From Candidatus Methylomirabilota bacterium (GTDB lineage Bacteria > Methylomirabilota > Methylomirabilia > Rokubacteriales > CSP1-6), in contig JBKPAK010000004.1 in assembly GCA_046726415.1 (NCBI GenBank), positions 1 through 14,165 of the forward strand: a DNA stretch of 14,165 nucleotides, read 5' to 3'. Positions 3,364 to 14,165 of the stretch are shown in pieces (position 1 is the stretch's first letter; every line of letters starts with the position of its first letter). A program made the translations under genes and the position numbers. Below the pieces are notes generated by a model. The model did not search any database and had not been told where the DNA came from. It saw only the letters and a list, made by a program, of their open reading frames with translations.

Positions 3364-5742
3364 TCACGGCATGCGTGAATCGTCCCGGGCACAGCGGAAA
3401 CCGAGGTTGAGGCCGCGGTCGGCTGACGAGAGGTTGTTGCGGAACGACACCCGCAAGACCTGCGCGTCGTCGTTCCAGGACCCGCCGCGAACCGCCCGGG
3501 GCCTACGAGACGACCGATCCTCGCTCCCCCCGTCGCTTTGAAAGGGGTTGTCGCGATAGAGACTCGAGGTCCACTCCCAGACGTTGCCGATCACGTCGTA
3601 CAGGCCGTAGCCGTTCGGCGGAAAGGATCCAACAGGTGCGGTTGCCTCCCACGTATCCTTGCCCGCCACTCCCTCGCCGTTGGCCTGATCGGCGGAATAC
3701 TTGTTCCCCCAGGGATAGATCCCTTCGGCGTTCCCACCGCGCGCGGCGTACTCCCACTCCGCCTCCGTGGGGAGCCGGCCGCGGACGAATTCACAAAAGC
3801 CCCTGGCGTCGTCCCAGGAGACGTACACGACAGGATGGCTGTCCTGGCTCCACTCGGGCTGCTGCTCCATGACGACGCCCCTCGGCTGGAGTAGGCGTCC
3901 GATGATCGTCGACTGAGCGTCGACGAACCGCCGGAACCGATCGACCGTCACCTCGCGGGACATGACCTCGAAGCCCCGGGACAGTTGGGTTGGGCGACGA
4001 ATCTTGTCAGGGGGCCGCTCATTGGAAAAGCAGTCTTTGTCCCCAGGCACGCAGCCCATCATGAACTGACCGCCGGGCGGCGCCGAGATCCGTATCCAGC
4101 CCAGATCGCTCATCAGGGCGTGCCGAATAAACTCCCGCCTCGCCACGCTGATGCCCAGCGTGCCCAGGACGCCAAGAACGGCGACCGCGACGACCAGCGC
4201 GAGCGTTTTCCTGACGCTGCGTCGGCGTATGTCGCGCTCGCGGCGTTCCTGCTCGGCGCGCAGGCGTTCTTCCTCGGCGCGCCGATCGCGCTCGCGGACC
4301 GCCGTGCTCTCCTCCAAGAAGCGCATGGCTCGCCCGAAGTCGGGATGGTATTGGTCGGCCCACGTGTCGTTCGGCTGATTCCGCTCCCGCCAATCGAGCG
4401 CTACCTGAAGGTCAGGGTCGCGCCATAGGCTCGCCTTGCCCGCCGCGTGCAACTCGGCCGTCTCCGCCAGGCGGCGGTACATCTGGGCCGAGTGGGCTTC
4501 GGCGTCTCCCCAACCTCTCAGCCGCCCCCACACCCGCATCAGACTCTCATGGGAGATGTCGATGACCGTCTCGGCCTTCAACGGTTCCCCGGCCGGCGGC
4601 ATCAAGAACGAACGGCTCGGCTCGCGGAACACGTTGACGACCGCGGTGACCTGCGCGGCCGTAGCCTCGGCAATAGCGCACAAGGCACCAAGCGTGGTCG
4701 GGCGTCGGATTCCGCGGGCGTCCGTCCCCGTGTCGGTCAGCGCCTTGAAGATCTTCTCGCAAATCTTCTGATCGCGCTCGCCGGCCAGCTGGGAATACGC
4801 CTCCTCCGCATGCTCGTCCAGAGCGTTGACCATGGTTCCGATCGCTTCATAGTGCCGCAGCTCCAGCGGGCCTTTGCCGCCGGTCTCCTGCTGCCAGCGG
4901 GCCCAGGTGCGGTTGAGCGCGTGCTGCAGGATCGAAAGCTGGTCCGGATTGTCCCCGACGTCGTTCACCAGCCGCGTCAGTAACACCGGGGCAATCTCGG
5001 CTCCGCCCACGCTGGCCGGCCCCACGATGGCGGCCCGGCGCTCGTCCCGGCTCATCCGGGGAACCAGATACTGACCCTTGTTGATGGCCTCGGGCAACCC
5101 AAAGAATTGCGCGCACTCGCCCAGGAAGTCCGAGCGCATGGTGAGCACGACGTAGACCGGGCAGGAGGCGTCCGCCCGCACTTCCAGCAGCCGGTTCACG
5201 AACCCCGTGGCGTCCTCGCCGATACCTGATGCGGCTTCCAGATGCGAGGCGCCCAGTCTTCGATAGCGAAACAGCTCCTCGAATTGATCCACCAGCAGCA
5301 GCAGATGGACGCCTTCGTCCAGCCGGGCTTGGCGATAGACGTCGATCAGTCCCAGGGTGCTCATGCGCAAGGTGGTCTCGATGATGTCTGCCAGGCTGAA
5401 ATCCCCCGCGTCGAAGCCCTTGTACAACACGCCGTCGCGGGCCAGAGCCGCGGCCATTGCCCGCAAGGGATTGCTGCCAGGCCGGAACTGGGCCATGCGC
5501 CAGGCCGTCCCGGCGCTGGCCATGAGGCCCCGATGCAAGGCCGGGCGCAGCCCGCAGTTGACCAGCGAGGACTTGCCGGAGCCCGAGGTGCCTACCACGG
5601 CCAGGAAGTGAGCCTCGGCCAGGGTGTTCACCATGACATCGACCTGCCTCTCGCGACCGAAAAACAGGTATTCCTCTTCTTCGCGGAACGGTCTCAGACC
5701 CGGGTAGGGATTTATCGGAGCGTCGACGGTCGGTGGGCTCAT
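3364..5742 (-). CDS. nSTAND1-type P-loop NTPase + coiled coil + TM helix + C-terminal FGE-sulfatase/C-type-lectin-fold domain (792 aa)
   Basis: NPYPGLRPF...FFGRE N-terminus, Walker A GTSGSGKSS, Walker B LLLVDQFEELF, VVLTMRSDFLG and DISHESL motifs typical of nSTAND1; R/E-rich coil; TM LALVVAVAVLGVLGTLGISVA (~4143-4208); FGE-family motifs HPVVYVSWDDA, RLPTEAEWEYAARGG, NGYGLYDVIGNVWEW, RGGSW, GFRC. Confidence 0.93.
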   Translation of the reverse strand: MSPPTVDAPINPYPGLRPFREEEEYLFFGRERQVDVMVNTLAEAHFLAVVGTSGSGKSSLVNCGLRPALHRGLMASAGTAWRMAQFRPGSNPLRAMAAALARDGVLYKGFDAGDFSLADIIETTLRMSTLGLIDVYRQARLDEGVHLLLLVDQFEELFRYRRLGASHLEAASGIGEDATGFVNRLLEVRADASCPVYVVLTMRSDFLGECAQFFGLPEAINKGQYLVPRMSRDERRAAIVGPASVGGAEIAPVLLTRLVNDVGDNPDQLSILQHALNRTWARWQQETGGKGPLELRHYEAIGTMVNALDEHAEEAYSQLAGERDQKICEKIFKALTDTGTDARGIRRPTTLGALCAIAEATAAQVTAVVNVFREPSRSFLMPPAGEPLKAETVIDISHESLMRVWGRLRGWGDAEAHSAQMYRRLAETAELHAAGKASLWRDPDLQVALDWRERNQPNDTWADQYHPDFGRAMRFLEESTAVRERDRRAEEERLRAEQERRERDIRRRSVRKTLALVVAVAVLGVLGTLGISVARREFIRHALMSDLGWIRISAPPGGQFMMGCVPGDKDCFSNERPPDKIRRPTQLSRGFEVMSREVTVDRFRRFVDAQSTIIGRLLQPRGVVMEQQPEWSQDSHPVVYVSWDDARGFCEFVRGRLPTEAEWEYAARGGNAEGIYPWGNKYSADQANGEGVAGKDTWEATAPVGSFPPNGYGLYDVIGNVWEWTSSLYRDNPFQSDGGSEDRSSRRPRAVRGGSWNDDAQVLRVSFRNNLSSADRGLNLGFRCARDDSRMP

Positions 5743-7253
5743 CGGGGGGCTGGGGTCGTGGGCGCGACGACCCGCACGAAGGCATCCATCGCCACGTCCG
5801 AGAAACCCTCCAGCCCGTTGATCAGGGTGGGCTCCTCAAGGGCCAGCAAGAGGTCCTTATCGTCCGTGGCCGAGCCCGCGAGGTAGGTGTACTCGGCGAG
5901 GAGCGGCTTGTCACGCTGACCGCGTATCTTCTTGAGCTCGTTTTGCTGGTGGAATTTCCAGGCCTCGTCTCCCCCCCCGTAGAACAGGATGACGGCATCA
6001 CAGCCCATGTACAGCGCCTGGTTGGCCTCTCTGACCTTCGTGGCATCTCCGGTGAAGACGGGGAGCGCGACCTCGAGCCCCCTGGCTTTCAGAAACTTCA
6101 ACACGGGCACGACGTCTTTCCGGTCCCGCTCGACGCAGAGGATGTACACCAGCTTGCGGCTGGCTTCGGCAAGGGGTTGGTCGGTGGTTTTCGGCTGCTC
6201 GGGCTGTTCCAGCTTCTTCAGCGCGGCGTGGATCGCGCCTTTCAGCTGCTCGAGGTCGCCGGTGATCAGGTCGGCGCCCGACTGCATCTCGGCATTCTGA
6301 TGAAGGGCGTCGATGAAGGCCTGCTGGGCCGCCTGCCCGGAGCTGGTCCCCTCGGGGAGCCAGATCACGCGTGGCAACCCGCCGCTCTTGCTGTGCCGAG
6401 CCGCGAGTTCGTTCTGCAGGACGACCACCGATTTCTGGCTGGCCCCATCGGGCACGACCCCGTAGCTGGTGCCGATCAGATGAACCGAGAACCGACATTT
6501 CGCCAGGAGGCGCTCGACCTCGGCGACGTACTCCTCTTCATCGCTGGAGAGCTGTTGATTCGGCAGGACCGTATACCCGTAGCGTTCCAGCTCCCCGCGC
6601 AGGGCCTCCCGGGCGTCTCGGCGGTCGCGACTACACTCGGCGAGATAGACCGTGGGTTTGGGTGCAGACCCGTCGGTGAGCGTGCTGTCGCTGTGCGGAA
6701 CACTGGCGCCGAGCCGGGCCAGCAGTTGGGCGATGTCCCGGGCCAGCTTGTAGACCTTCCTGAGGAACTCCTCTTTCGACTTGTCTCCGTAGGCGGGGTC
6801 GAACTCTCTCGGGGTCTGGTCCTCATCGTAGCCATAGAACTCGTACCCCAGCAGCTTGATCACGACAGGGGGCAGCGGCTCCTCCCGGTCGACCGGGGTT
6901 TTGATGACCTTGAAGACCCGGGACTTATTGTCGACAACGAGACCCCCGGTCCGCAGGGCCCGCTGACAGAACTCGTTGATCTCTTTGGTGCACCATTCCG
7001 AGTGGAGGTAGCGGGGCGTGAGGACGGAGATCAGCGCCGCAGTTTTGGGGAGCTGATCGACGATCTCGTCGGAGAAGATGTCGTTGCCTCTGAGTTTCTC
7101 GTCTCTCCAGATGCCCGCTTTGGTTCCTATCTGCTGGCTGAGCATCGTTTGCAGCGTACGGTGGAACAGGGTGACCCAACCCTTTTGGTCAGGAGTCAAG
7201 GGTTCGTTGTCGATGTGGGCGTAGCTGATGAAGACGTCCCACTGAAAGCTCAT
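5739..7253 (-). CDS. TIR-domain protein with two additional TIR-like/DUF4062-like Rossmann domains (504 aa)
   Basis: Preferred start ATG 7253 (MSFQWDVFISYAHIDN) with GAGGAAG upstream; the 123-aa extension to 7622 in the track looks like non-coding sequence. TIR motifs DVFISYAH, IWRD, TPRYLHSEWCTKE. Domain 2 TVYLAE...ELERYGYTVLP...SVHLIGTSYG; domain 3 LVYILC...FLKARGLEVALP...CDAVILFYG...W...EL. Stop overlaps the next start (ATGA, 5739-5742). Confidence 0.9.
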   Translation of the reverse strand: MSFQWDVFISYAHIDNEPLTPDQKGWVTLFHRTLQTMLSQQIGTKAGIWRDEKLRGNDIFSDEIVDQLPKTAALISVLTPRYLHSEWCTKEINEFCQRALRTGGLVVDNKSRVFKVIKTPVDREEPLPPVVIKLLGYEFYGYDEDQTPREFDPAYGDKSKEEFLRKVYKLARDIAQLLARLGASVPHSDSTLTDGSAPKPTVYLAECSRDRRDAREALRGELERYGYTVLPNQQLSSDEEEYVAEVERLLAKCRFSVHLIGTSYGVVPDGASQKSVVVLQNELAARHSKSGGLPRVIWLPEGTSSGQAAQQAFIDALHQNAEMQSGADLITGDLEQLKGAIHAALKKLEQPEQPKTTDQPLAEASRKLVYILCVERDRKDVVPVLKFLKARGLEVALPVFTGDATKVREANQALYMGCDAVILFYGGGDEAWKFHQQNELKKIRGQRDKPLLAEYTYLAGSATDDKDLLLALEEPTLINGLEGFSDVAMDAFVRVVAPTTPAPR

Positions 7254-7674
7254 GGCCGCTGTCTTCCTCGAAAGCTGCTGCTGGGCGAGCATGGGAACGA
7301 TTGAGGCCACCTCCGCGGCCTCGGGGCGGGCCGCGGGCGTCCGGCTGGCTTCGAGGCGCCCCTCGCCTATGCTCGGGGCCCCGCCGCACCAAGTCTCCCG
7401 TACCACGACTCCTGAATCCGCCCCGGTGCTTCTCTTCCATGGGCCTTCCGACCCCCCCGAGGGGCTGGCCGCCCCCGGGAAGCGTCTGGGCAGACATCTT
7501 ACGGCAAGTTCGAGGCCGCGGTGGACGATCGAGACCCGGCCCCGCCCTCCTCCCCGCGGCGGCGCCCGGTTGATGACGGCGACGCCCCGAGGTGCTCGAC
7601 CGCCGCGTCGAAGTACCCACAATCCTGGTTGAGGCGGCCCCTGACGGGAGTGTCATCCGGCGGCAGGGAGGGGC

Positions 7675-7915
7675 GACGTTGAGGAGACGGCGAGCACGGC
7701 GGTATCGGCACGCGGTATCGGCACATGGTGGCGCGGGGCTGCTCGGCCAGGTTGGCTTTCATGAACTCGAATCTCTGGACGGGATCGACGTGGTCTCCTT
7801 GGCGAACCAGGCCGCGGCGTTGCGGAGGATCTCGCGCTCTTCGCGCAGGACGCGCTCCCGGCGCAGGCGCCGTAGCTCCTCCCGTTCCTCCGAGGTCACG
7901 CCGTCGCCGGCTGGC
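7675..7915 (-). mobile_element. IS3-family transposase remnant (OrfA C-terminus and OrfB N-terminus)
   Basis: OrfA tail [34 protein letters not shown]; overlapping shifted frame [18 protein letters not shown]...VLAVSS resembles the IS3 OrfB start. No DDE domain or terminal inverted repeats seen. Confidence 0.8.
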
Positions 7916-8242
7916 CCTCTTCTCGGTCGGCTTGGGCGACCCCGTTGCGGATGGCGGCGGCCGACGGTTCGAACTTTCGGGCCCTTTGCCAGAACTGCGT
8001 CAGGCCGGCGAGTTGTTGATCTGTTGGCTATAGGGATAGGAATTTCTAGGGCGCTCGCGCGCGTGCCTGACGCCAACCTTCACCTCGTTCTCGCTCCCCC
8101 CGGGTCGCGCCGCCTGAGCCGCGATGCTCCGCTGGCGTGGGGAGGGCCGGGTGTGCGGAGGGCGTCTCCGCGGTCCCGATTTCTTGGAGGGAAAGCGGGC
8201 GTGGAAGGGCCGCCCCGAGGGGGACGGATCCGATAAGATCGC

Positions 8243-9097
8243 TCATCGTGCGTCCTTGCGGCGCATCTCGCGGATCGCGTCTTGAGTGCGCCGATCAGCT
8301 CGTCGTCGGGACGGCCGCCAGGCGCCCGGCCCCAATGTGGCACCGTGAACGCCTCGGGCACGTGGCGGTACCGAGACGGGTTGCCGTCGTAGTCGGGGTC
8401 GATCGCGATCGGCACGATGAACGTGCGGCCCCCAGGGGGGATCCTATTCGCTCGTTCCACCGCCTCGCGCCACTCCACGAGGAGGAGTGGGCTCTCCTTC
8501 AGCCGGTAGTTGAGCCACTCCGGGAGGCGTGCCGTCTCAGTGAGCAGGGTTGCAGCCACTCGAGGATGTCCTCGTCGTGCAGGGCGTACTGCGGGGTCGA
8601 GGACGCTTTGCCGAAGACCTTGAACACCACCGTGTCGTCTTCCGGGGTGCGCGCGCGTTCTCCTCCTGCTCGCCCGTGGACTGGTTGGGCGAGAACTCGC
8701 GCGTGCGCGCTTCGGCGCCGAAGCGGACCCCGTTGAGGGCGCGGGCGAGGAGCGAGTCGAACGTCGTGCCGATGAAGACACGGAAGTCGCCGATGCCTGC
8801 GAGCTGGCGCAGTGCCTCCGGCGGTTCCGGATTCAGATCGGAGAGGAGGTCGTTGACCACCCGGTAGAGGCGCTGGGCTTCACCGCGCCCGGCCAGGTCG
8901 CTGCGACGGCGTCATCAAGCGCGGATTCTGGCCCCCAGTCGACCTTGAGCTGATACCGCGCGGCGATGCGTTCGCCCAGGAGCCGCGAGAGGGTCACCGG
9001 CCGATCGCCATCCTGGACCCTGACGAGCTCCGGCCCGGAGCACCCGCTCTTTCAAGTGCCCGAGGATATCGTCCCAGAAATCCTCGCGTGCGGTCAC
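8243..9097 (-). pseudogene. Degraded SIR2-like + TIR protein (about 5 frameshifts and a probable large internal deletion)
   Basis: GTG 9097 with GGGAGG RBS. Stitched frames: VTAREDFWDDILGHLKERVL / GPELVRVQDGDRPVTLSRLLGERIAARY... / LYRVVNDLL...ALRQLAGIGDFRVFIGTTFDSLLARAL... / VVFKVFGKASSTPQYALHDEDILEWL / LPEWLNYRLKESPLLL // VEWREAVERANRIPPGGRTFIVPIAID...VPEAF / DAIREMRRKDAR*. TTFD and FKVFG match SIR2-like motif positions; EW...FIVPIAID matches a TIR C-terminal half. Confidence 0.75.
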
Positions 9098-9368
9098 CCG
9101 GCCTCCCTCTCGGATCAACAGATTAGCGCAGGACGCCAATTCGACCAGGGGCCCCAGAATGGACCCAATAGCATCAACGAATTCGGGCATCGGAGGGCTG
9201 GCGTGGCACACCCCGAGAGCCCTCGGCCCGCCTGCGGCGGCCGCCTGGCCTCGGTATGAGGATGCCGGGCCGGTCAGTCCTTCGGCAGTCGTCCGCAAAG
9301 CGTCGCGCTTGTCGTGTCGACGAGCTTTTTGTGCGCACGTCTCGATACGCTCCTCCTTTTTCCAGGGA

Positions 9369-9388
9369 GTGATGTCAAGTAACATCAC
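9369..9388. promoter_or_regulatory. Perfect 7-bp inverted repeat GTGATGT-N6-ACATCAC in a divergent intergenic region (candidate operator)
   Basis: Arms at 9369-9375 and 9382-9388, in a locally AT-richer patch ~40 bp upstream of the + strand gene at 9430. Confidence 0.3.
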
Positions 9389-9429
9389 GCTCGAGAAGGA
9401 CGGGCGACAGGCGGGGTAGGAGGTGATGT

Positions 9430-9969
9430 GTGGTCATCGCGGTGGCCGGCCGGCGCATCGATGCGGCCCATGCGAAGGCTCCGCGCTTTCCGCTGCACAA
9501 CGTGCCGATCGTTGAGCGACGGCTTGGTGAGTTGTTCGAGCGGGAAGCCGCGACGGCCCTGGTCGGCTCCGCCGCGTGCGGAGCTGACCTGGTGGCATTG
9601 AGGGTGGCGGGCGTGCGGGGAATGCGCCGCCGCATCGTGCTTCCCTTCAGTCGCGATGAATTCCGCGCGACCTCAGTAGCTGATCGGCCTGGGGACTGGG
9701 GCCCGGTGTACGACCGGGTCCTGGCCGAGCTAGTTCCGACCCGCGACGTGATCATCCTCGAAGGGCGCAGCAAAGAGAACGATCCGTACCTGGCGGCCAA
9801 CGAGGTTATCTTGCACAATGCAGCAACGCTGGCTCGGGAGTCGAACGCCAAAGTGCTGGCCGTCCTTGTCTGGGAAGGAGCGCCACGTGCCGCCGACGAC
9901 GTCACGGCCGCCTTCGGTGACGAAGCCTGTAGACGCGGCTGGCGCGTGGAGGAGGTGAGGACGCTGTGA
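9430..9969 (+). CDS. Stand-alone SLOG-like (YpsA/DprA-fold) putative nucleotide-binding protein (179 aa)
   Basis: GTG start with AGGAGG (9418-9423) 6 nt upstream. Motifs VIAVAGRRID...PRFP, GSAACGADL, RRIVLPF, LVWEG parallel the C-terminal domain of the 680-aa protein (VILFAGHRID...PRFP, APGGDILF, CLPM, LALWDG). Confidence 0.8.
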   Translation: MVIAVAGRRIDAAHAKAPRFPLHNVPIVERRLGELFEREAATALVGSAACGADLVALRVAGVRGMRRRIVLPFSRDEFRATSVADRPGDWGPVYDRVLAELVPTRDVIILEGRSKENDPYLAANEVILHNAATLARESNAKVLAVLVWEGAPRAADDVTAAFGDEACRRGWRVEEVRTL

Positions 9970-9977
9970 GGCCGTTT

Positions 9978-11162
9978 TTAGATCTCGACGGCCGCCACCT
10001 CCGGCAGATCGAAGCCGGCGGGGAAATCCGCGGCATTCACGTCACGCGCGGCCGCCAGGACGCCAAGCTTGTGTAGGTACGACATGTTCTCCGGCGCATC
10101 CATCGCGCTCAGCGATGCGATCCTGTTGGCCTCAGGGGGCACCGGATCAAGCGCGCGCACGCTGTCGGCCCTAAGATCGACGTTGTAGCGCAGGTAGCTG
10201 AGGGCTGGAACGCTACCGGCAAGGTCCTGCCCCAGATCGCCGAGCTCGAGATCGATCTGGCGGGCCGTGCGGCTGCTCGACATCCACTGCAACAGCATCT
10301 CCTGCAGTAGGGCACAGTCCTCCATAAGGGACAGGAGCGCCTTGAGCGCGCCCTGCGCGGCGAGCTTCGAGGGTTTCACGCTCGGATCCGATGCGCCCGT
10401 GCCCACCGAAACCACCAGAAGCTTGTCCGCCCCTGTCGGCCAGCCGATCCGGTAGCCGCCGAGCGTGGCATACATGACAGCTATCAGCGCCGGGTTGTTA
10501 AATGGGCTGATGCCACCATCGATGAACTCGCCGACGACGGGCGCCGCGCCGGGCGTGCTCCCGATCGTGATAGGCTCTGGCTCGAAGTACGATGGGGCAG
10601 CGGTGGATGCTCGCACAACCTGCCAAAGCGGGTAGTCGCTGTTGCCGATGGTCCCGCCGACTCGCGCCGCGAAGTACTTGCCGCGAGGATTGTTGCTGAT
10701 CGGCCACCAGCTCCCGGTGTCGATTCGCTTGGTGACCAGGAGCAGGCCCGTCTCGATCTTGTCGCTGCCCAGGGTCGTCTCGGGCCCGTAGACCTTCTGG
10801 AGCTCGTCGATCAGACGGCTCTCGTCGTACTTGGCGCGCAGCACACCCTGCCGGAAGAACGTCTTTTCAAACACCCGTGAGCCCAGCTCCATGTACTTCG
10901 CGCGGATCTGCTCGACGGACCAGCCAAGCGAGACGGTCGCGGCGATAATGGCGCCGGTAGAGGTGCCTGCGACGAGATCGAAGTAGTGGCACAGCCGGAA
11001 GTCGGGGCTGTCCCCGTGCCGTTCTCGCAGAATCGTCTCGATCCGCTGGAGGATGGCGAGAGTTAGGATCCCACGCAACCCGCCCCCGTCGAGCGCGAGG
11101 ATCCGCTTGGGCTCACCGTCATTACTCAGGTGCTGGTCGCGACTTCGTCTCACGTGCGGCAT
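9978..11162 (-). CDS. Patatin-like phospholipase (394 aa)
   Basis: ILALDGGGLRG glycine loop, catalytic GTSTG, RASTAAPSYF, and DGG motif. ATG 11162 preferred because AAGGAGG lies 6 nt upstream; the track start 11198 is an alternative. Confidence 0.93.
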   Translation of the reverse strand: MPHVRRSRDQHLSNDGEPKRILALDGGGLRGILTLAILQRIETILRERHGDSPDFRLCHYFDLVAGTSTGAIIAATVSLGWSVEQIRAKYMELGSRVFEKTFFRQGVLRAKYDESRLIDELQKVYGPETTLGSDKIETGLLLVTKRIDTGSWWPISNNPRGKYFAARVGGTIGNSDYPLWQVVRASTAAPSYFEPEPITIGSTPGAAPVVGEFIDGGISPFNNPALIAVMYATLGGYRIGWPTGADKLLVVSVGTGASDPSVKPSKLAAQGALKALLSLMEDCALLQEMLLQWMSSSRTARQIDLELGDLGQDLAGSVPALSYLRYNVDLRADSVRALDPVPPEANRIASLSAMDAPENMSYLHKLGVLAAARDVNAADFPAGFDLPEVAAVEI

Positions 11163-11181
11163 GGGGCGCCTCCTTGCATCT

Positions 11182-13224
11182 TCATCCGACATCGTCATTC
11201 GAGAGCAGCTCGTGGGAGTCGATGCGCCTCACATCGACGACACCGGCGTGGCGCGCCAGCTCGACCATGTCCGCCGTCCCGCCGCGGTCATCCCCCGTCG
11301 GCTGGCCGTCCCACAGGGCCAGCAGCGTGATCCGCTTGGCACCGGCGGCCAGCCCCATCTGGAGGACCCAGCGATTCCCCCGCTCCCAAACGTTGATCGA
11401 CGTGCCGGCCAGCCAGCGTGGGAGACCCTCCTGGTCGGTCAGTTCAAGTACGTCGCAGTTGCGCTCCCGATTGCGGTTGAGCAACGCCAGGAACCGGGAA
11501 CGCCAGTCGTCGACATCGTCGCTGAACATGTGGGAGGAGTACTTGTCCGCTGGCATCGGGAGGCACGGAAGGCTGCGAACCCCAAGCTCGTTGCACACTT
11601 CGTGGAAGAGAATGTCGCCGCCAGGCGCGGCGGGGGCGAATCCGAGCATCTGCATGTCGTCGGAGACGAGCTTGGTCAAGGCATCGCAGATGAGGCGCTT
11701 GGCTCGATCACCCTTGCTGGCGGGAAAGCGGGGCTCAGGCCGGCCGGGACGGTCGATGCGATGGCCAGCGAACAGAATGACGTGCAGAGGTTTCGGGGGA
11801 GGTTTGCTGGACCCGGCAAACTTGCGATCGACTTCCGCCATGACCTTCTCCGCGCGGCCGGCTCGAACTCCGAGGTCGGCGAAAAGCTGGAGCTGGCCTC
11901 TGGCCGCGTCCCACACGAACGGCTTGTCACGGGGAATGGTGTCGCGATAGCGGCTGACGACCCGCTGATCGTTCTGATCTGTTAGGAACAGCACGTCCCC
12001 CTTGCTCACCTCGGGCCAAATCCGGTCCTTGTGGTTGGCCGGCAACTGCGCCAGGGCCCTGTCGACGGAGGCCGAGACGACGTGTCGCAGCGCTGCGACG
12101 TCCTGGACGAGCTCCTGCCGATACCGGTCGGCCTGCGCATCGTCGTCGAACGTCGACTTCCAGGTCTCAACCGTGTCCGATAGATCGAGGAAGATCGTGC
12201 CCATCTGGAGTGCGGCCAGCCCGGACCAGAAGTGATTGAGATCCTTGGCGAACGCGGCTCGATAGGCATCGAAACTTTTGCGCAACGACTCAGTCATCCC
12301 GGACGACCGGCGCTCCTCGACGGACGCCAGGTCCGCGAATTCCAGACGCCAGCGCGTCTTTAGATTACGCCCCTGCAGCGCAAACGCTTCCACCTGGTCT
12401 CTGCCAGCAACGTCCTGGCGCCTGAGTATGCGCTCGATGGCTTGATCGGATAGAGCGAGCAGTTCGGGCTTCCTCTCGTCCCTGTACAACCGCTCGTAAA
12501 CGTTGACCAAGGCGAGGTTGGCTTTCACGTTCTCCGGCTCGACCGCTCGAATGGCCTCGAGATTTTCCCGGGCGCCCGCGTAGTCCTTAAGGTCGCACTG
12601 GCTGTCCGCGACCAGCTGGAGGCCCGGACGCTCGAATGGGCGACCACGGACCTCCTGCGCGAGGAGTCGCAGCCAGCCCTTGGAGTTCGCGGCCTGGGCC
12701 CGGTTGACCTCCTCCCGGAAGTCGAAGGGGACGAACTGACCTGAGGACGGATCGGCCTCCAACAGTTCGGGAAGCATGGTGAAGATCGGGCTGTCGCTGC
12801 GTCGATCGCTCTGCAGCGTGGCACGGATCGACTGCACGAGCTTGGCCTTCGCCCCCTGATCGGCAAGGTCATAGGAAATATATCGGTCGGTGAGCAGATC
12901 GAACGGAGGTGTGTCCGCTGAACCGACGTGCTTGATGACGAGCGTGCTCTTTCGCCGTAGCGCGTGGCGAATGCCGAGCTCGTAGAAGACGTTCGCGTTC
13001 AGCAGCGTGATGTCACAGACCACCAAGTCGGCCGCGAGGATGAAGGAGAACATGTCCTCGCGTATGTTTCCGGCATCGATGATCTCGCCAGTGGTGGATC
13101 CCGCAAGTCCCGCTTCGCTGAGCGCCGGACCGATCAGATTGGCATGCACCGCCTCAAAATCGAACTCCCGGCCGGCAGAGTCCTTCTTCCTTCCAAATGG
13201 GCGGATGACGAATGCACGCGCCAT
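11182..13224 (-). CDS. Deoxyribohydrolase/NDT-like domain + TPR region (DUF4071/MAP3K TRAF-binding/TPR-S-like) + C-terminal SLOG-like domain (680 aa)
   Basis: ATG 13224 with AGGAGG 5 nt upstream. N-terminal AFVIRPFG...ADLVVCDITLLNANVFYELGIRHALR...PFD, then SDSPIF; helical TPR-like middle (ALQGRNLKTRW, YRAAF..DLNHFWSGL); C-terminal (~11790-11182) FAGHRID, APGGDILFHE, LALWDG, GGTADMV. Confidence 0.88.
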   Translation of the reverse strand: MARAFVIRPFGRKKDSAGREFDFEAVHANLIGPALSEAGLAGSTTGEIIDAGNIREDMFSFILAADLVVCDITLLNANVFYELGIRHALRRKSTLVIKHVGSADTPPFDLLTDRYISYDLADQGAKAKLVQSIRATLQSDRRSDSPIFTMLPELLEADPSSGQFVPFDFREEVNRAQAANSKGWLRLLAQEVRGRPFERPGLQLVADSQCDLKDYAGARENLEAIRAVEPENVKANLALVNVYERLYRDERKPELLALSDQAIERILRRQDVAGRDQVEAFALQGRNLKTRWRLEFADLASVEERRSSGMTESLRKSFDAYRAAFAKDLNHFWSGLAALQMGTIFLDLSDTVETWKSTFDDDAQADRYRQELVQDVAALRHVVSASVDRALAQLPANHKDRIWPEVSKGDVLFLTDQNDQRVVSRYRDTIPRDKPFVWDAARGQLQLFADLGVRAGRAEKVMAEVDRKFAGSSKPPPKPLHVILFAGHRIDRPGRPEPRFPASKGDRAKRLICDALTKLVSDDMQMLGFAPAAPGGDILFHEVCNELGVRSLPCLPMPADKYSSHMFSDDVDDWRSRFLALLNRNRERNCDVLELTDQEGLPRWLAGTSINVWERGNRWVLQMGLAAGAKRITLLALWDGQPTGDDRGGTADMVELARHAGVVDVRRIDSHELLSNDDVG

Positions 13225-13298
13225 ACGCACCTCCTGCCGAATGGCTCAACGGGGGTTCCTGCCATCCCTTTCAGTCCGGAAGGACCGCAGCCGGCGAG

Positions 13299-13327
13299 AT
13301 TATAGCCCACCTACCAAAGTCAGTCGT
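13299..13327 (-). promoter_or_regulatory. Candidate sigma70-type promoter for the 680-aa gene/patatin unit
   Basis: Perfect TATAAT on the minus strand (13304-13299), ~75 bp upstream of the ATG; the -35 at 17-bp spacing is poor (ACGACT). Confidence 0.35.
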
Positions 13328-14046
13328 GCACCTGCAGCTCTTTCGCGCGGGCGGCGCCCCTCTACAACCCGAAGCTCTTCGTCGCTTGCGCCGGCCAGAC
13401 ACGCCCATCCTCGACCTGACCACGGGCGAGCGGACCGCCGTCGCGCGGTTCGCCGCCGTCCTCGGCGCCTCGAACTACACCTACGCCGAAGCCAACCTCA
13501 CTCAGCAGCGGTCCCAGAATAGATCAGTCACCTGCCCGCCTTCGCCTTGCCCGGCGGCGTCACCGCGGCTGTGGTTTGCGATCAGCTCTTAGAGCGGCGT
13601 CGTGATCTTGTGTCGCTACGAGCTGGGCCTGCAGCGCACTGACGAGGAGCTCGCCCAACACTAAGGCGCGGTGATCGTGCCCGCACGGCACCCGCATTGC
13701 CGAGCTCGTCACCGCCGTCAAAATCCGTACCAGGCGCCTCTACCGGGCGAGCCGCCGGGATCTGTTCGAGCGCCTCGGACCGAGTCGCGCTCCGCCCCAC
13801 CCCACAGAACCCTTCGTCTAGGGCGAATGGAAGACCGCGCGGGTCGGACCACCACATCGAGATGCACAGTCACTACTACTCCGTGCACTATATGCTCCTG
13901 CACGAGGTCGTCGAGGTCCGCGCCAGCGCGAGCATCGTCGAGATCTTCCACCGGGCCAGCGCGTCGGAGCCCATCCCCGCAGCGATTTCCGCGGACACCA
14001 CACCACCGACCCTCCCATATGCCCAAGGCGCACCAGCGCCACCTTG
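13310..14046 (+). mobile_element. istA: IS21-family transposase (IstA) pseudogene remnant
   Basis: Fragments across frames: KLFVACAGQ, ILDLTTGE...FAAVLGASNYTYAEA, GGVTAAVVCDQL/SGVVILCRYELGLQRTDEELAQH*GAVIVPAR, SRRDLFERL, EWKTARV, DHHIEMHSHYYSV...VEVRASASIVEIFHR, MPKAHQRHL. Multiple frameshifts, stops and deletions; no istB or terminal repeats seen. Confidence 0.88.
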
Positions 14047-14165
14047 CAGCTCGCGCCGAGAGACGTGCCAGCAGCGAGTCAGCTCGGCCTGCATTTGCCG
14101 GTTGCGTACTCGATCATCATGACCGCCTCTTCGGGGGTGTGACTCCGAAGATCCGGCACCGCTCG

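Follow-up and report, generated by a model that had tools for sequence, protein, structure and literature searches.

The 14,165-bp stretch of DNA analysed here, called the window throughout, is the whole of contig C4 (JBKPAK010000004.1) in a Candidatus Methylomirabilota assembly (GCA_046726415.1; 7.6 Mb in 352 contigs, G+C 64-72%). Because the high G+C content produces many spurious long open reading frames (ORFs), only those with family matches or conserved homologues were kept. Followed on the minus strand from position 13224 downwards, they are the gene of a multidomain protein, P0001, a patatin gene, a 179-aa ORF on the plus strand, a broken gene, insertion sequence (IS) debris, the gene of a TIR protein, TIR3, and the gene of an nSTAND1 protein. 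Family matches define the last two as module A (3364-7253, minus strand), a TIR3 enzyme with its nSTAND1 receptor. Module B (9430-13224), recognised by family and fold matches, comprises P0001 as the core and the patatin, both on the minus strand, and the small SLOG-like protein on the plus strand. An earlier note, made from the letters of this DNA alone, had suggested that all these genes might form one immune circuit or, equally, two independent modules. The reading we prefer, with modest confidence, is that of two self-sufficient modules lying together with a dead SIR2-TIR gene in one defence-type island.

The TIR3-nSTAND1 pair

The receptor gene of module A (3364-5742, minus strand) encodes 792 aa, assigned by Pfam and a hydropathy scan. 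Its nSTAND1 domain (PF20703, E 3e-93; residues 12-432, positions ~4447-5709) contains a Walker A motif, GTSGSGKS with K57, and a Walker B motif, LLLVDQFEE. The C-terminal FGE-sulfatase domain (PF03781, E 2e-54; residues 556-786, positions ~3385-4077) has the C-type-lectin fold, and the combination of nSTAND1 and C-type lectin in one protein, as the earlier note had read it, is confirmed. The hydropathy scan found a single hydrophobic helix at residues 512-530 (~4153-4209). Since the protein has no signal peptide and arginine and lysine are richer on the N-terminal side of the helix, the FGE-sulfatase domain is predicted to be extracytoplasmic and the NTPase cytoplasmic.

The NTPase part is 43-78% identical to that of the related nSTAND1 proteins, and the likeness ends near residue 480-545. 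Beyond this point, the C-terminal regions of 62 relatives carry WD40 (22), RDD (3), FGE-sulfatase (2), Glyco_hydro_19 (2), TPR (2), SPOR (1) or DUF2914 (1) domains, and nothing recognised in 29. Varying C-terminal domains would be the pattern expected of a sensor end. A transmembrane-like segment follows the NTPase in 50 of the 62 proteins by a simple hydropathy rule, and most TIR3-linked nSTAND1 receptors appear to be anchored in the membrane, their variable domain lying past the helix. The nSTAND1 partners at loci L081-L160 suggest that there is an entire family of STAND receptors with a membrane anchor and an outward sensor.

We also considered a diversity-generating retroelement acting on the FGE-sulfatase domain and rejected it, as the genome holds no template-repeat-like copy of the 3' part of the receptor gene. 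The best genomic match to this part, on contig C87, has 76% identity with mismatches of all kinds rather than adenine-specific ones, and both reverse transcriptase matches of the genome sit on contigs other than that of the window.

TIR3 (5739-7253, minus strand; Pfam) is a 504-aa protein with a TIR_2 domain, a DUF4062/NIR-like domain and a third conserved domain. The earlier note had counted three TIR-like domains. The first stands, with a TIR_2 match of E 6e-12 and a SEWCTKE motif. The second stands as well, though as a borderline case, matching DUF4062 at E 5.5e-5 with 23.7 bits, just under the 24.7-bit cut-off of Pfam, and many TIR3 homologues carry PF13271 in precomputed annotation. Both the glutamate of the TIR motif and the glutamate of the DUF4062-like domain (LQNE) are invariant in 22/22 sequences. 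The third domain did not hold up as TIR-like, since in hhalign it resembles the second only weakly (E 0.0025, probability 12%). Comparisons by the same program between TIR3 domain 1, TIR3 domain 3, the head of P0001 and the SLOG domains gave nothing significant, and TIR3 scored 54 bits against NCBIfam FxsC_Nterm, below the cut-off of 130.

The stop codon of TIR3 overlaps the nSTAND1 start by 4 bp. The TIR3 family has 1602 homologues among the 8000 candidates scored; the 120 matches listed are 49-99% identical to the query, the full-length ones mostly 57-70%. At least 511 TIR3 loci were found in the species-representative genomes of the search and at least 586 P0001 loci, and 80 loci were kept for each module. 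The nSTAND1 gene lies directly after TIR3 in 77 of the 80 (one of them, L082, from a genome flagged as unpublished). In two of the three exceptions (L121 and L160) a contig end interrupts the locus; the third (L132) has a truncated TIR3 without nSTAND1. Because the genes downstream of the pair are heterogeneous and mostly housekeeping (47 scanned), and those upstream reflect the synteny of the lineage, for example an outer membrane protein barrel, dnaX and recR in acidobacterial loci, the pair is the whole unit, with no third conserved gene. A FecR-domain protein was tried as a third component and dismissed: none of the 47 downstream neighbours is FecR-like, and a FecR gene lies nearby only in L064.

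The P0001 core and its partners

P0001 is encoded on the minus strand at 11182-13224 and has 682 aa if translation begins at GTG 13230, or 680 aa from ATG 13224; its parts were assigned by Pfam, AlphaFold and fold matches. An AlphaFold model built from 44 sequences is confident (pLDDT 90, pTM 0.86) and has alpha/beta domains as head and tail, with a long middle of helical repeats between them. The middle (~11800-12735) is a TPR-S region by Pfam (PF20308, E 4e-10, residues 216-342).

By fold and motif, the head (~12736-13224) is a putative N-glycosidase of the MilB/DNPH1/NDT type. When folded alone (pLDDT 81), it aligned in VIA-align with MilB at Z 11.8 and with nucleoside 2-deoxyribosyltransferases (NDTs) at Z 11.6, 11.5 and 10.9, TIR and receiver domains lying about 1 Z unit lower, and Foldseek gave a TMt of 0.67-0.71 to DNPH1. 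A profile of the head gave a weak match to DNPH1 among PDB sequences (E 0.34), in which the segment ...ADLVV.D......V.YELG..., which contains the catalytic glutamate, is aligned. The motif N78-x-N80-x3-E84, numbered from GTG 13230, is invariant in 44/44 sequences.

The tail (11185-11799), again by fold and motif, resembles the SLOG protein YpsA of B. subtilis (2nx2; Foldseek TMt 0.70, r.m.s.d. 4.2 Å). Fold and motif also carry the SLOG assignment of the small protein, the Pfam SLOG models matching neither. A profile of the tail reached only chance-level matches among PDB sequences, for instance TTK kinase at E 0.06. When the whole 682-aa model was submitted to Foldseek, the matches were mainly TPR proteins (SPY/OGT), and only YpsA was informative; this route was abandoned. 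Pfam, NCBIfam (June 2026) and PADLOC (2023) have no model matching the head or the tail, save a weak PADLOC TIR-effector match (E 1.3e-4), and the last two likewise gave no match for 11 shorter glycosidase-TPR relatives of P0001. For the tail, a sensor role seems more likely than a hydrolase role, because the glutamate of the LOG-type motif is not conserved at the GGTAxMVx position; the yardstick is a motif which we take to be 'PGGxGTxxE'.

The patatin-like phospholipase (9978-11198, minus strand, 406 aa) was recognised by Pfam (PF01734, E 5e-27) and by PADLOC as a CBASS phospholipase effector (E 2e-41), and scored 105 bits against NCBIfam CBASS_lipase, below the cut-off of 200. Its GGGxRG oxyanion loop, G-T-S80-T-G nucleophile and D227-G dyad are all invariant in 29 sequences, and its start overlaps the end of P0001 by 17 nt. 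Convergent with it lies the stand-alone SLOG-like gene (9430-9969, plus strand, 179 aa), identified by hhalign: aligned with the SLOG tail of P0001 (probability 100%, E 3.5e-53), its product is a paralogue of that tail. Relatives with 48-49% identity adjoin a P0001 homologue in L011 and L019, and a stand-alone SLOG copy occurs in 7/80 module B loci. Stand-alone ORFs of ~200 aa with a SLOG domain were also seen in genomes G026, G032, G034 and G038. The NDT-like hydrolase, TPR, patatin and two SLOG domains that the earlier note had seen in this module were all recovered by family, fold or motif.

The P0001 family has 1142 homologues among the 8000 candidates scored, and among the 120 matches listed nearly all are full-length with 53-80% identity, one cluster reaching 99%. 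A locus scan with the single P0001 sequence found no relatives, and an alignment was used as the query instead; the loci found with it come from many phyla. A patatin adjoins the P0001 homologue, on either side, in 47 of the 80 loci kept (46 by clustering), seven of the patatin-bearing loci being from closely related Bradyrhizobium genomes. Of the 33 loci without patatin, 29 were examined, the contigs of the other four being too short. Their nearest genes encode, among others, SLATT 2TM proteins (L026, L040), DUF7379-LCAT-CHAT-TPR-S proteins of ~1,800 aa (by Pfam in L004, L030, L042 and L059, to which clustering adds L001 and L035), TIR_2 proteins of several architectures, or ordinary metabolic enzymes. 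In L039 (2432-6757), the P0001 homologue is immediately preceded by a 1441-aa fusion that joins a ParA-like ATPase to a C-terminal portion of nSTAND1, TPR-S and patatin, and TPR-S-patatin fusions occur in 8 loci, some of which also have a stand-alone patatin. A TIR-like ORF, detected with a hidden Markov model (HMM) built from the TIR domains described here (E <= 1e-3), lies within 4.5 kb of the P0001 homologue in 22/80 loci, 11 with patatin and 11 without. What emerges for module B is a constant core whose effector-type partners can be exchanged and which often has a TIR neighbour.

Two side observations concern the same domains. TPR-S may be a docking or sensing module shared by different effectors. 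Among loci L161-L180, from genomes with TIR3, there are many proteins of 440-490 aa that have the same glycosidase head and part of TPR-S, without the SLOG tail; the TIR HMM found a TIR domain near them in 1/20 loci (L172, with one fused and one adjacent).

Comparison with known systems

Both gene sets are large and strongly conserved, with more than 500 loci each among species-representative genomes and listed full-length relatives ~53-80% identical. The earlier note had not recognised the combination as a named system, which proved true of one half. Judged from its domains, module A belongs to a class described computationally by Kaur et al. (2021, eLife 10:e70394, PMC8195603). In the accessible parts of that paper, nSTAND1 is defined, and STAND proteins with an FGE-sulfatase ('FGS') domain are reported alongside effectors such as TIR, frequently in association with diversity-generating retroelements; the lectin-like sensors are called intracellular, and such systems are tied to multicellular bacteria. 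Module A shares with these systems the fusion of nSTAND1 to FGS and the presence of a TIR effector. As far as those parts of the paper go, it differs in that the TIR is encoded by a separate, overlapping upstream gene and has three domains instead of being an N-terminal fusion. No EAD-linked pair was recognised, Pfam finding no adaptor domain in TIR3 or the receptor, whose NTPase starts at residue 12. Furthermore, the FGS domain of the window is predicted to lie outside by virtue of the membrane helix, a link to a diversity-generating retroelement is missing, and FGS is a minority sensor, found in 2/62 relatives. Module A suggests that many bacterial NLR-like STAND proteins might be membrane receptors with an outward sensor, unlike the cytoplasmic Avs paradigm.

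TIR3 also resembles the DUF4062/NIR NADases. In the portions available of two preprints (bioRxiv 10.64898/2026.05.01.722283 and 10.64898/2026.09.04.749371), DUF4062 is a TIR-like NADase with a catalytic glutamate that acts in phage defence, also as an Avs effector. Like Swarozyc and the Avs2 effector as presented there, TIR3 has an invariant glutamate and is associated with a STAND NTPase. Unlike them, its domain is part of a separate multi-TIR protein beside a membrane nSTAND1 protein, neither fused to an Avs protein nor alone with an auxiliary domain. Against the Avs/AVAST models, PADLOC gave only weak matches at the P-loop level (mads_8 and mads_3, E ~6e-4 to 9e-4), and in the window the effector is a separate protein.

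Module B would be a so far unreported extension of type VIII Thoeris, with the SLOG tail and the patatin partner as additions. The part of the type VIII preprint that could be consulted (bioRxiv 10.64898/2025.12.03.692087, Yirmiya et al.) states that in the ThsI system the TIR makes canonical cyclic ADP-ribose (cADPR), which activates the effector ThsI and, when added, is toxic to system-carrying cells. SLATT effectors (type VII) respond to cADPR too and are sometimes found in the ThsI operon, and the TPR of ThsI is tied to the Burroughs-Aravind prediction of TIR signalling, TPR-S being the presumed signal reader. The related BcTpr, as described in the available sections of another preprint (bioRxiv 10.1101/2023.05.26.542521), has a MilB-like head that requires N82 and E86, the latter equivalent to MilB E103. 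It binds cADPR with a Kd of 1.9 µM and acts as a complex with BcTir, and 29/78 BcTpr-type cores have no TIR neighbour. P0001 resembles ThsI and BcTpr, as they appear in these excerpts, in having a MilB/CMP-hydrolase-like N-glycosidase head followed by TPR, a likeness of architecture, fold and motif only. The N-x-N-x3-E spacing of P0001 equals that of N80/N82/E86 in the same excerpts on BcTpr. The term 'TPR-S' was not met in our literature search results; we infer that the TPR of ThsI corresponds to Pfam TPR-S. Frequent TIR neighbours and the occasional SLATT gene at the locus are further features that module B has in common with types VII and VIII, as the type VIII excerpts portray them.

Unlike ThsI, P0001 has an additional YpsA-like SLOG tail of ~200 aa, and its usual partner is a patatin, sometimes with a small SLOG protein. 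Unlike type VIII Thoeris, most module B loci have no TIR, and the co-transcribed neighbour of the core in the window is the patatin; the nearest intact TIR gene lies 2.2 kb away from module B (7253 vs 9430), past a pseudogene and IS debris, and is part of the nSTAND1 pair. Our literature search returned no account of a glycosidase-TPR-S-SLOG protein with patatin, which may be covered by Burroughs 2015, Burroughs & Aravind 2020 or the Thoeris tables (~29 configurations). Module B would thus extend cADPR-driven type VIII Thoeris by a second nucleotide-sensing domain and a membrane-lytic partner. It raises the question whether the signal is read by TPR-S, the reader presumed in the consulted part of the Thoeris preprint, or by SLOG, on the model of ThsA.

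The joining of a nucleotide-sensing SLOG domain to a domain that cleaves NAD+ or nucleotides is likewise found in ThsA of type I Thoeris. Unlike ThsA (SIR2-SLOG), P0001 has a MilB-like glycosidase and TPR-S in between, and the SLOG proteins of the window lack SIR2; the only SIR2 in the window belongs to the decayed SIR2-TIR gene, which has no SLOG. The patatin resembles the cGAMP-activated CapV of CBASS in its fold, its intact Ser-Asp dyad and its position as a membrane effector under second-messenger control. Unlike in CBASS, its partner is the glycosidase-TPR-S-SLOG protein, and no ORF scanned in the window matched a CD-NTase model in Pfam, PADLOC or NCBIfam.

Possible mechanism of the two modules

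Homology, conserved and invariant catalytic residues, fold and gene neighbourhoods suggest the following steps for two self-sufficient modules. In module A, the outward FGE-sulfatase domain, with its lectin fold, might bind a cue from the cell envelope, upon which the cytoplasmic NTPase would oligomerise. The oligomer would bring the TIR + DUF4062 proteins together, and TIR3 might then cleave NAD+, resulting in depletion or in an ADP-ribose-type signal. In module B, the TPR-S middle, the SLOG tail or both might sense an ADP-ribose-derived nucleotide, or a TIR partner. The MilB-like head would be turned on and destroy NAD+ or nucleotides, and the co-transcribed patatin would attack membrane phospholipids. 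The small SLOG protein probably binds the same ligand and might buffer or tune the response. The modules would act independently, their closeness reflecting island clustering, possibly with optional cross-talk.

The same sensors invite a reading outside phage defence, in which both modules serve envelope surveillance, kin discrimination or programmed death in social bacteria and the sensors read surface or peptidoglycan cues. The predominance of membrane-anchored nSTAND1 partners, with outer domains including SPOR, Glyco_hydro_19, RDD and FGE-sulfatase, agrees with such a role, as do several loci among housekeeping genes and the link that the accessible text of Kaur et al. draws between such systems and multicellular bacteria (PMC8195603). 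We nevertheless consider it improbable: the nearest tested relatives (ThsI, BcTpr, DUF4062 proteins and CapV-type patatins) all act in phage defence according to the parts of the literature consulted, and the SIR2-TIR wreck and IS debris of the window are typical of defence islands.

Independence or coupling of the modules

If the modules were parts of one device, they would be expected to travel together. TIR3 and nSTAND1 were present inside the fetched flanks of 2/80 module B loci (L003 and L064), and patatin, the core or both inside those of 3/80 module A loci (L101, L103 and L144). Among the 251 genomes of the phylum to which the window belongs, 6 have a full-length core and 2 have TIR3, the genome of the window being counted in both, and 4 of the 6 genomes with the core lack TIR3. 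The earlier note's circuit, in its strictest form, is an obligate five-gene system in which a STAND-lectin protein induces a TIR signal that is read by SLOG and executed by patatin, all parts being required. In its favour, a single contig has all the parts in a span of 10 kb, and L003 and L103 have similar sets. However, each module is conserved alone in hundreds of loci, the 77/80 and 47/80 pairings occurring mostly without the other module, and at most 14/49 genomes with TIR3 show any core, complete or partial. We judge the five-gene system extremely improbable; because each module is conserved without the other and those four core genomes lack TIR3, the distribution refutes an obligate circuit, by the yardstick of the earlier note itself. 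Two autonomous modules, the other option that the earlier note had named, are favoured instead.

Several findings nonetheless weigh against the reading of two self-sufficient modules or parts of it. The modules are co-located in the window, L003, L064, L101, L103, L144 and L181-183, which is more than independence predicts; a complete lack of co-occurrence in other genomes, named by the earlier note as a sign against its reading, is not what is seen, gene-neighbourhood analysis having found them together in about seven independent lineages. Three loci are co-directional with short gaps (L103, ~308 bp; L144, 75 bp; L101, 236 bp), in L003 a TPR-S-patatin gene precedes TIR3 by 107 bp in the same orientation, and in three mutually related acidobacterial genomes (L181-183) TIR3-nSTAND1 is ~7.5 kb from patatin and core. 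In L094 (14164-15438), a 424-aa glycosidase-TPR gene, ThsI-like and without SLOG, follows a TIR3-nSTAND1-WD40 pair by 20 bp on the same strand. At the level of whole genomes, an uninterrupted full-length core is found in 10/49 TIR3 genomes (one of the ten, G002, being unpublished) and a partial or split one in 4 more; in the remaining 35, either nothing matches the core or its head or tail domain occurs by itself, some of the metagenome-assembled genomes being incomplete. Conversely, 16/49 core genomes hold a TIR3-family gene. Genomes with both modules mostly have them on separate contigs, as in 13 of these 16 core genomes and in all but one of the TIR3-genome set.

Other points concern the parts. 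The predicted placement of the FGE-sulfatase domain outside the cytoplasm follows from a hydropathy rule that is crude. The kinship of P0001 with ThsI is one of architecture, fold and motif. Housekeeping surroundings, named by the earlier note as a sign against immunity, do occur: some module A homologues sit among housekeeping genes, which is at best neutral for a defence role.

The co-location is the ground for a reading of facultative coupling, a 'receptor-gated Thoeris', in which the membrane nSTAND1 receptor would activate TIR3 and TIR3 would act on module B, via a cADPR-type product or a contact between TIR and TPR-S, the glycosidase and patatin then carrying out the response; each module could also work alone. 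Glycosidase-TPR effectors driven by a TIR have been validated in type VIII Thoeris and in BcTir/BcTpr, the latter as a complex, in the parts of the two preprints that could be consulted. The TIR-like genes within 4.5 kb of the core in 22/80 loci, the roughly seven lineages with co-location, three of them co-directional with short gaps, and the TPR-S-patatin gene near TIR3 in L003 point the same way, as does the presence of each family in ~20-33% of the genomes holding the other, compared with 0.8-2.4% in one phylum. On the other hand, neither module has the other within 7-9 kb in ~95% of its loci, the modules are mostly on different contigs when in one genome, and those of the window are parted by a dead gene and IS debris into two transcription units. 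As a few soil lineages make up much of the samples, which are uncorrected for kinship, and the background rate comes from one phylum, the excess co-occurrence is suggestive only. We regard facultative coupling as possible but doubtful, and continue to prefer two self-sufficient modules.

A fuller version is an optional two-tier pathway, in which a membrane-spanning STAND receptor, reading the envelope through its outward lectin-fold domain, would license the multi-TIR enzyme, and the NAD+-derived product of this enzyme or the TIR protein itself would be read by the TPR-S/SLOG modules of a ThsI-like glycosidase and a nearby patatin. We find this scheme unlikely, if not negligibly so. It would resemble plant TIR-NLR signalling to lipase-like proteins of the EDS1 family. 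The recurrent pairing lends itself to asking if Thoeris-like pathways can be gated by STAND receptors.

Decayed genes and flanking sequences

The region between the modules consists of decayed material. The gene at 8275-9091 (minus strand) was identified by phmmer, by tblastn and by Pfam analysis of a relative: one reading-frame piece leads to intact relatives of ~460 aa in the representative library, the best being P0244 (462 aa, phmmer E 1e-29), which has SIR2_2 (E 4e-9) and TIR_2 (E 1e-16) domains. Residues 3-216 and 379-451 of P0244 align by tblastn to three frames of the window and ~217-378 are absent, so that this is a SIR2-TIR gene with at least two frameshifts and an internal deletion, decayed as the earlier note had read it.

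The interleaved IS debris of that note is likewise real, though small. An IS3-family remnant at 7700-7920 (minus strand) comprises the orfA end, found by tblastn with 65% identity over 43 aa to the orfA end of an intact IS3 on contig C322 of the same genome, and an apparent orfB start recognised by eye only. A 105-bp repeat at 8034-8138 has blastn copies on contigs C106 and C294, 86% and 81% identical, and might represent the end of an IS or a short mobile repeat; the C294 copy adjoins a fragment that resembles an IS110-type transposase in its motifs only. Pfam gave no significant match, even at E up to 10, for fragments of the pseudogene and the IS or for the small SLOG protein, and a scan of the whole window at the Rfam gathering thresholds matched no RNA family.

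At one end of the window, a secreted FecR-domain repeat protein is encoded on the minus strand at 3-2843, with a signal peptide, the FecR domain at residues 75-152 and a proline-rich linker. The gene runs off the contig end and contains at least four tandem repeats of 306 bp (102 aa), rich in Gly, Ser and Thr, at 1-1236, which are 87-91% identical to one another. At the other end, ~0.9 kb (13231-14165) has no family match and no conserved ORF; it includes a 319-bp stretch (13371-13689) with 73% identity to contig C77.

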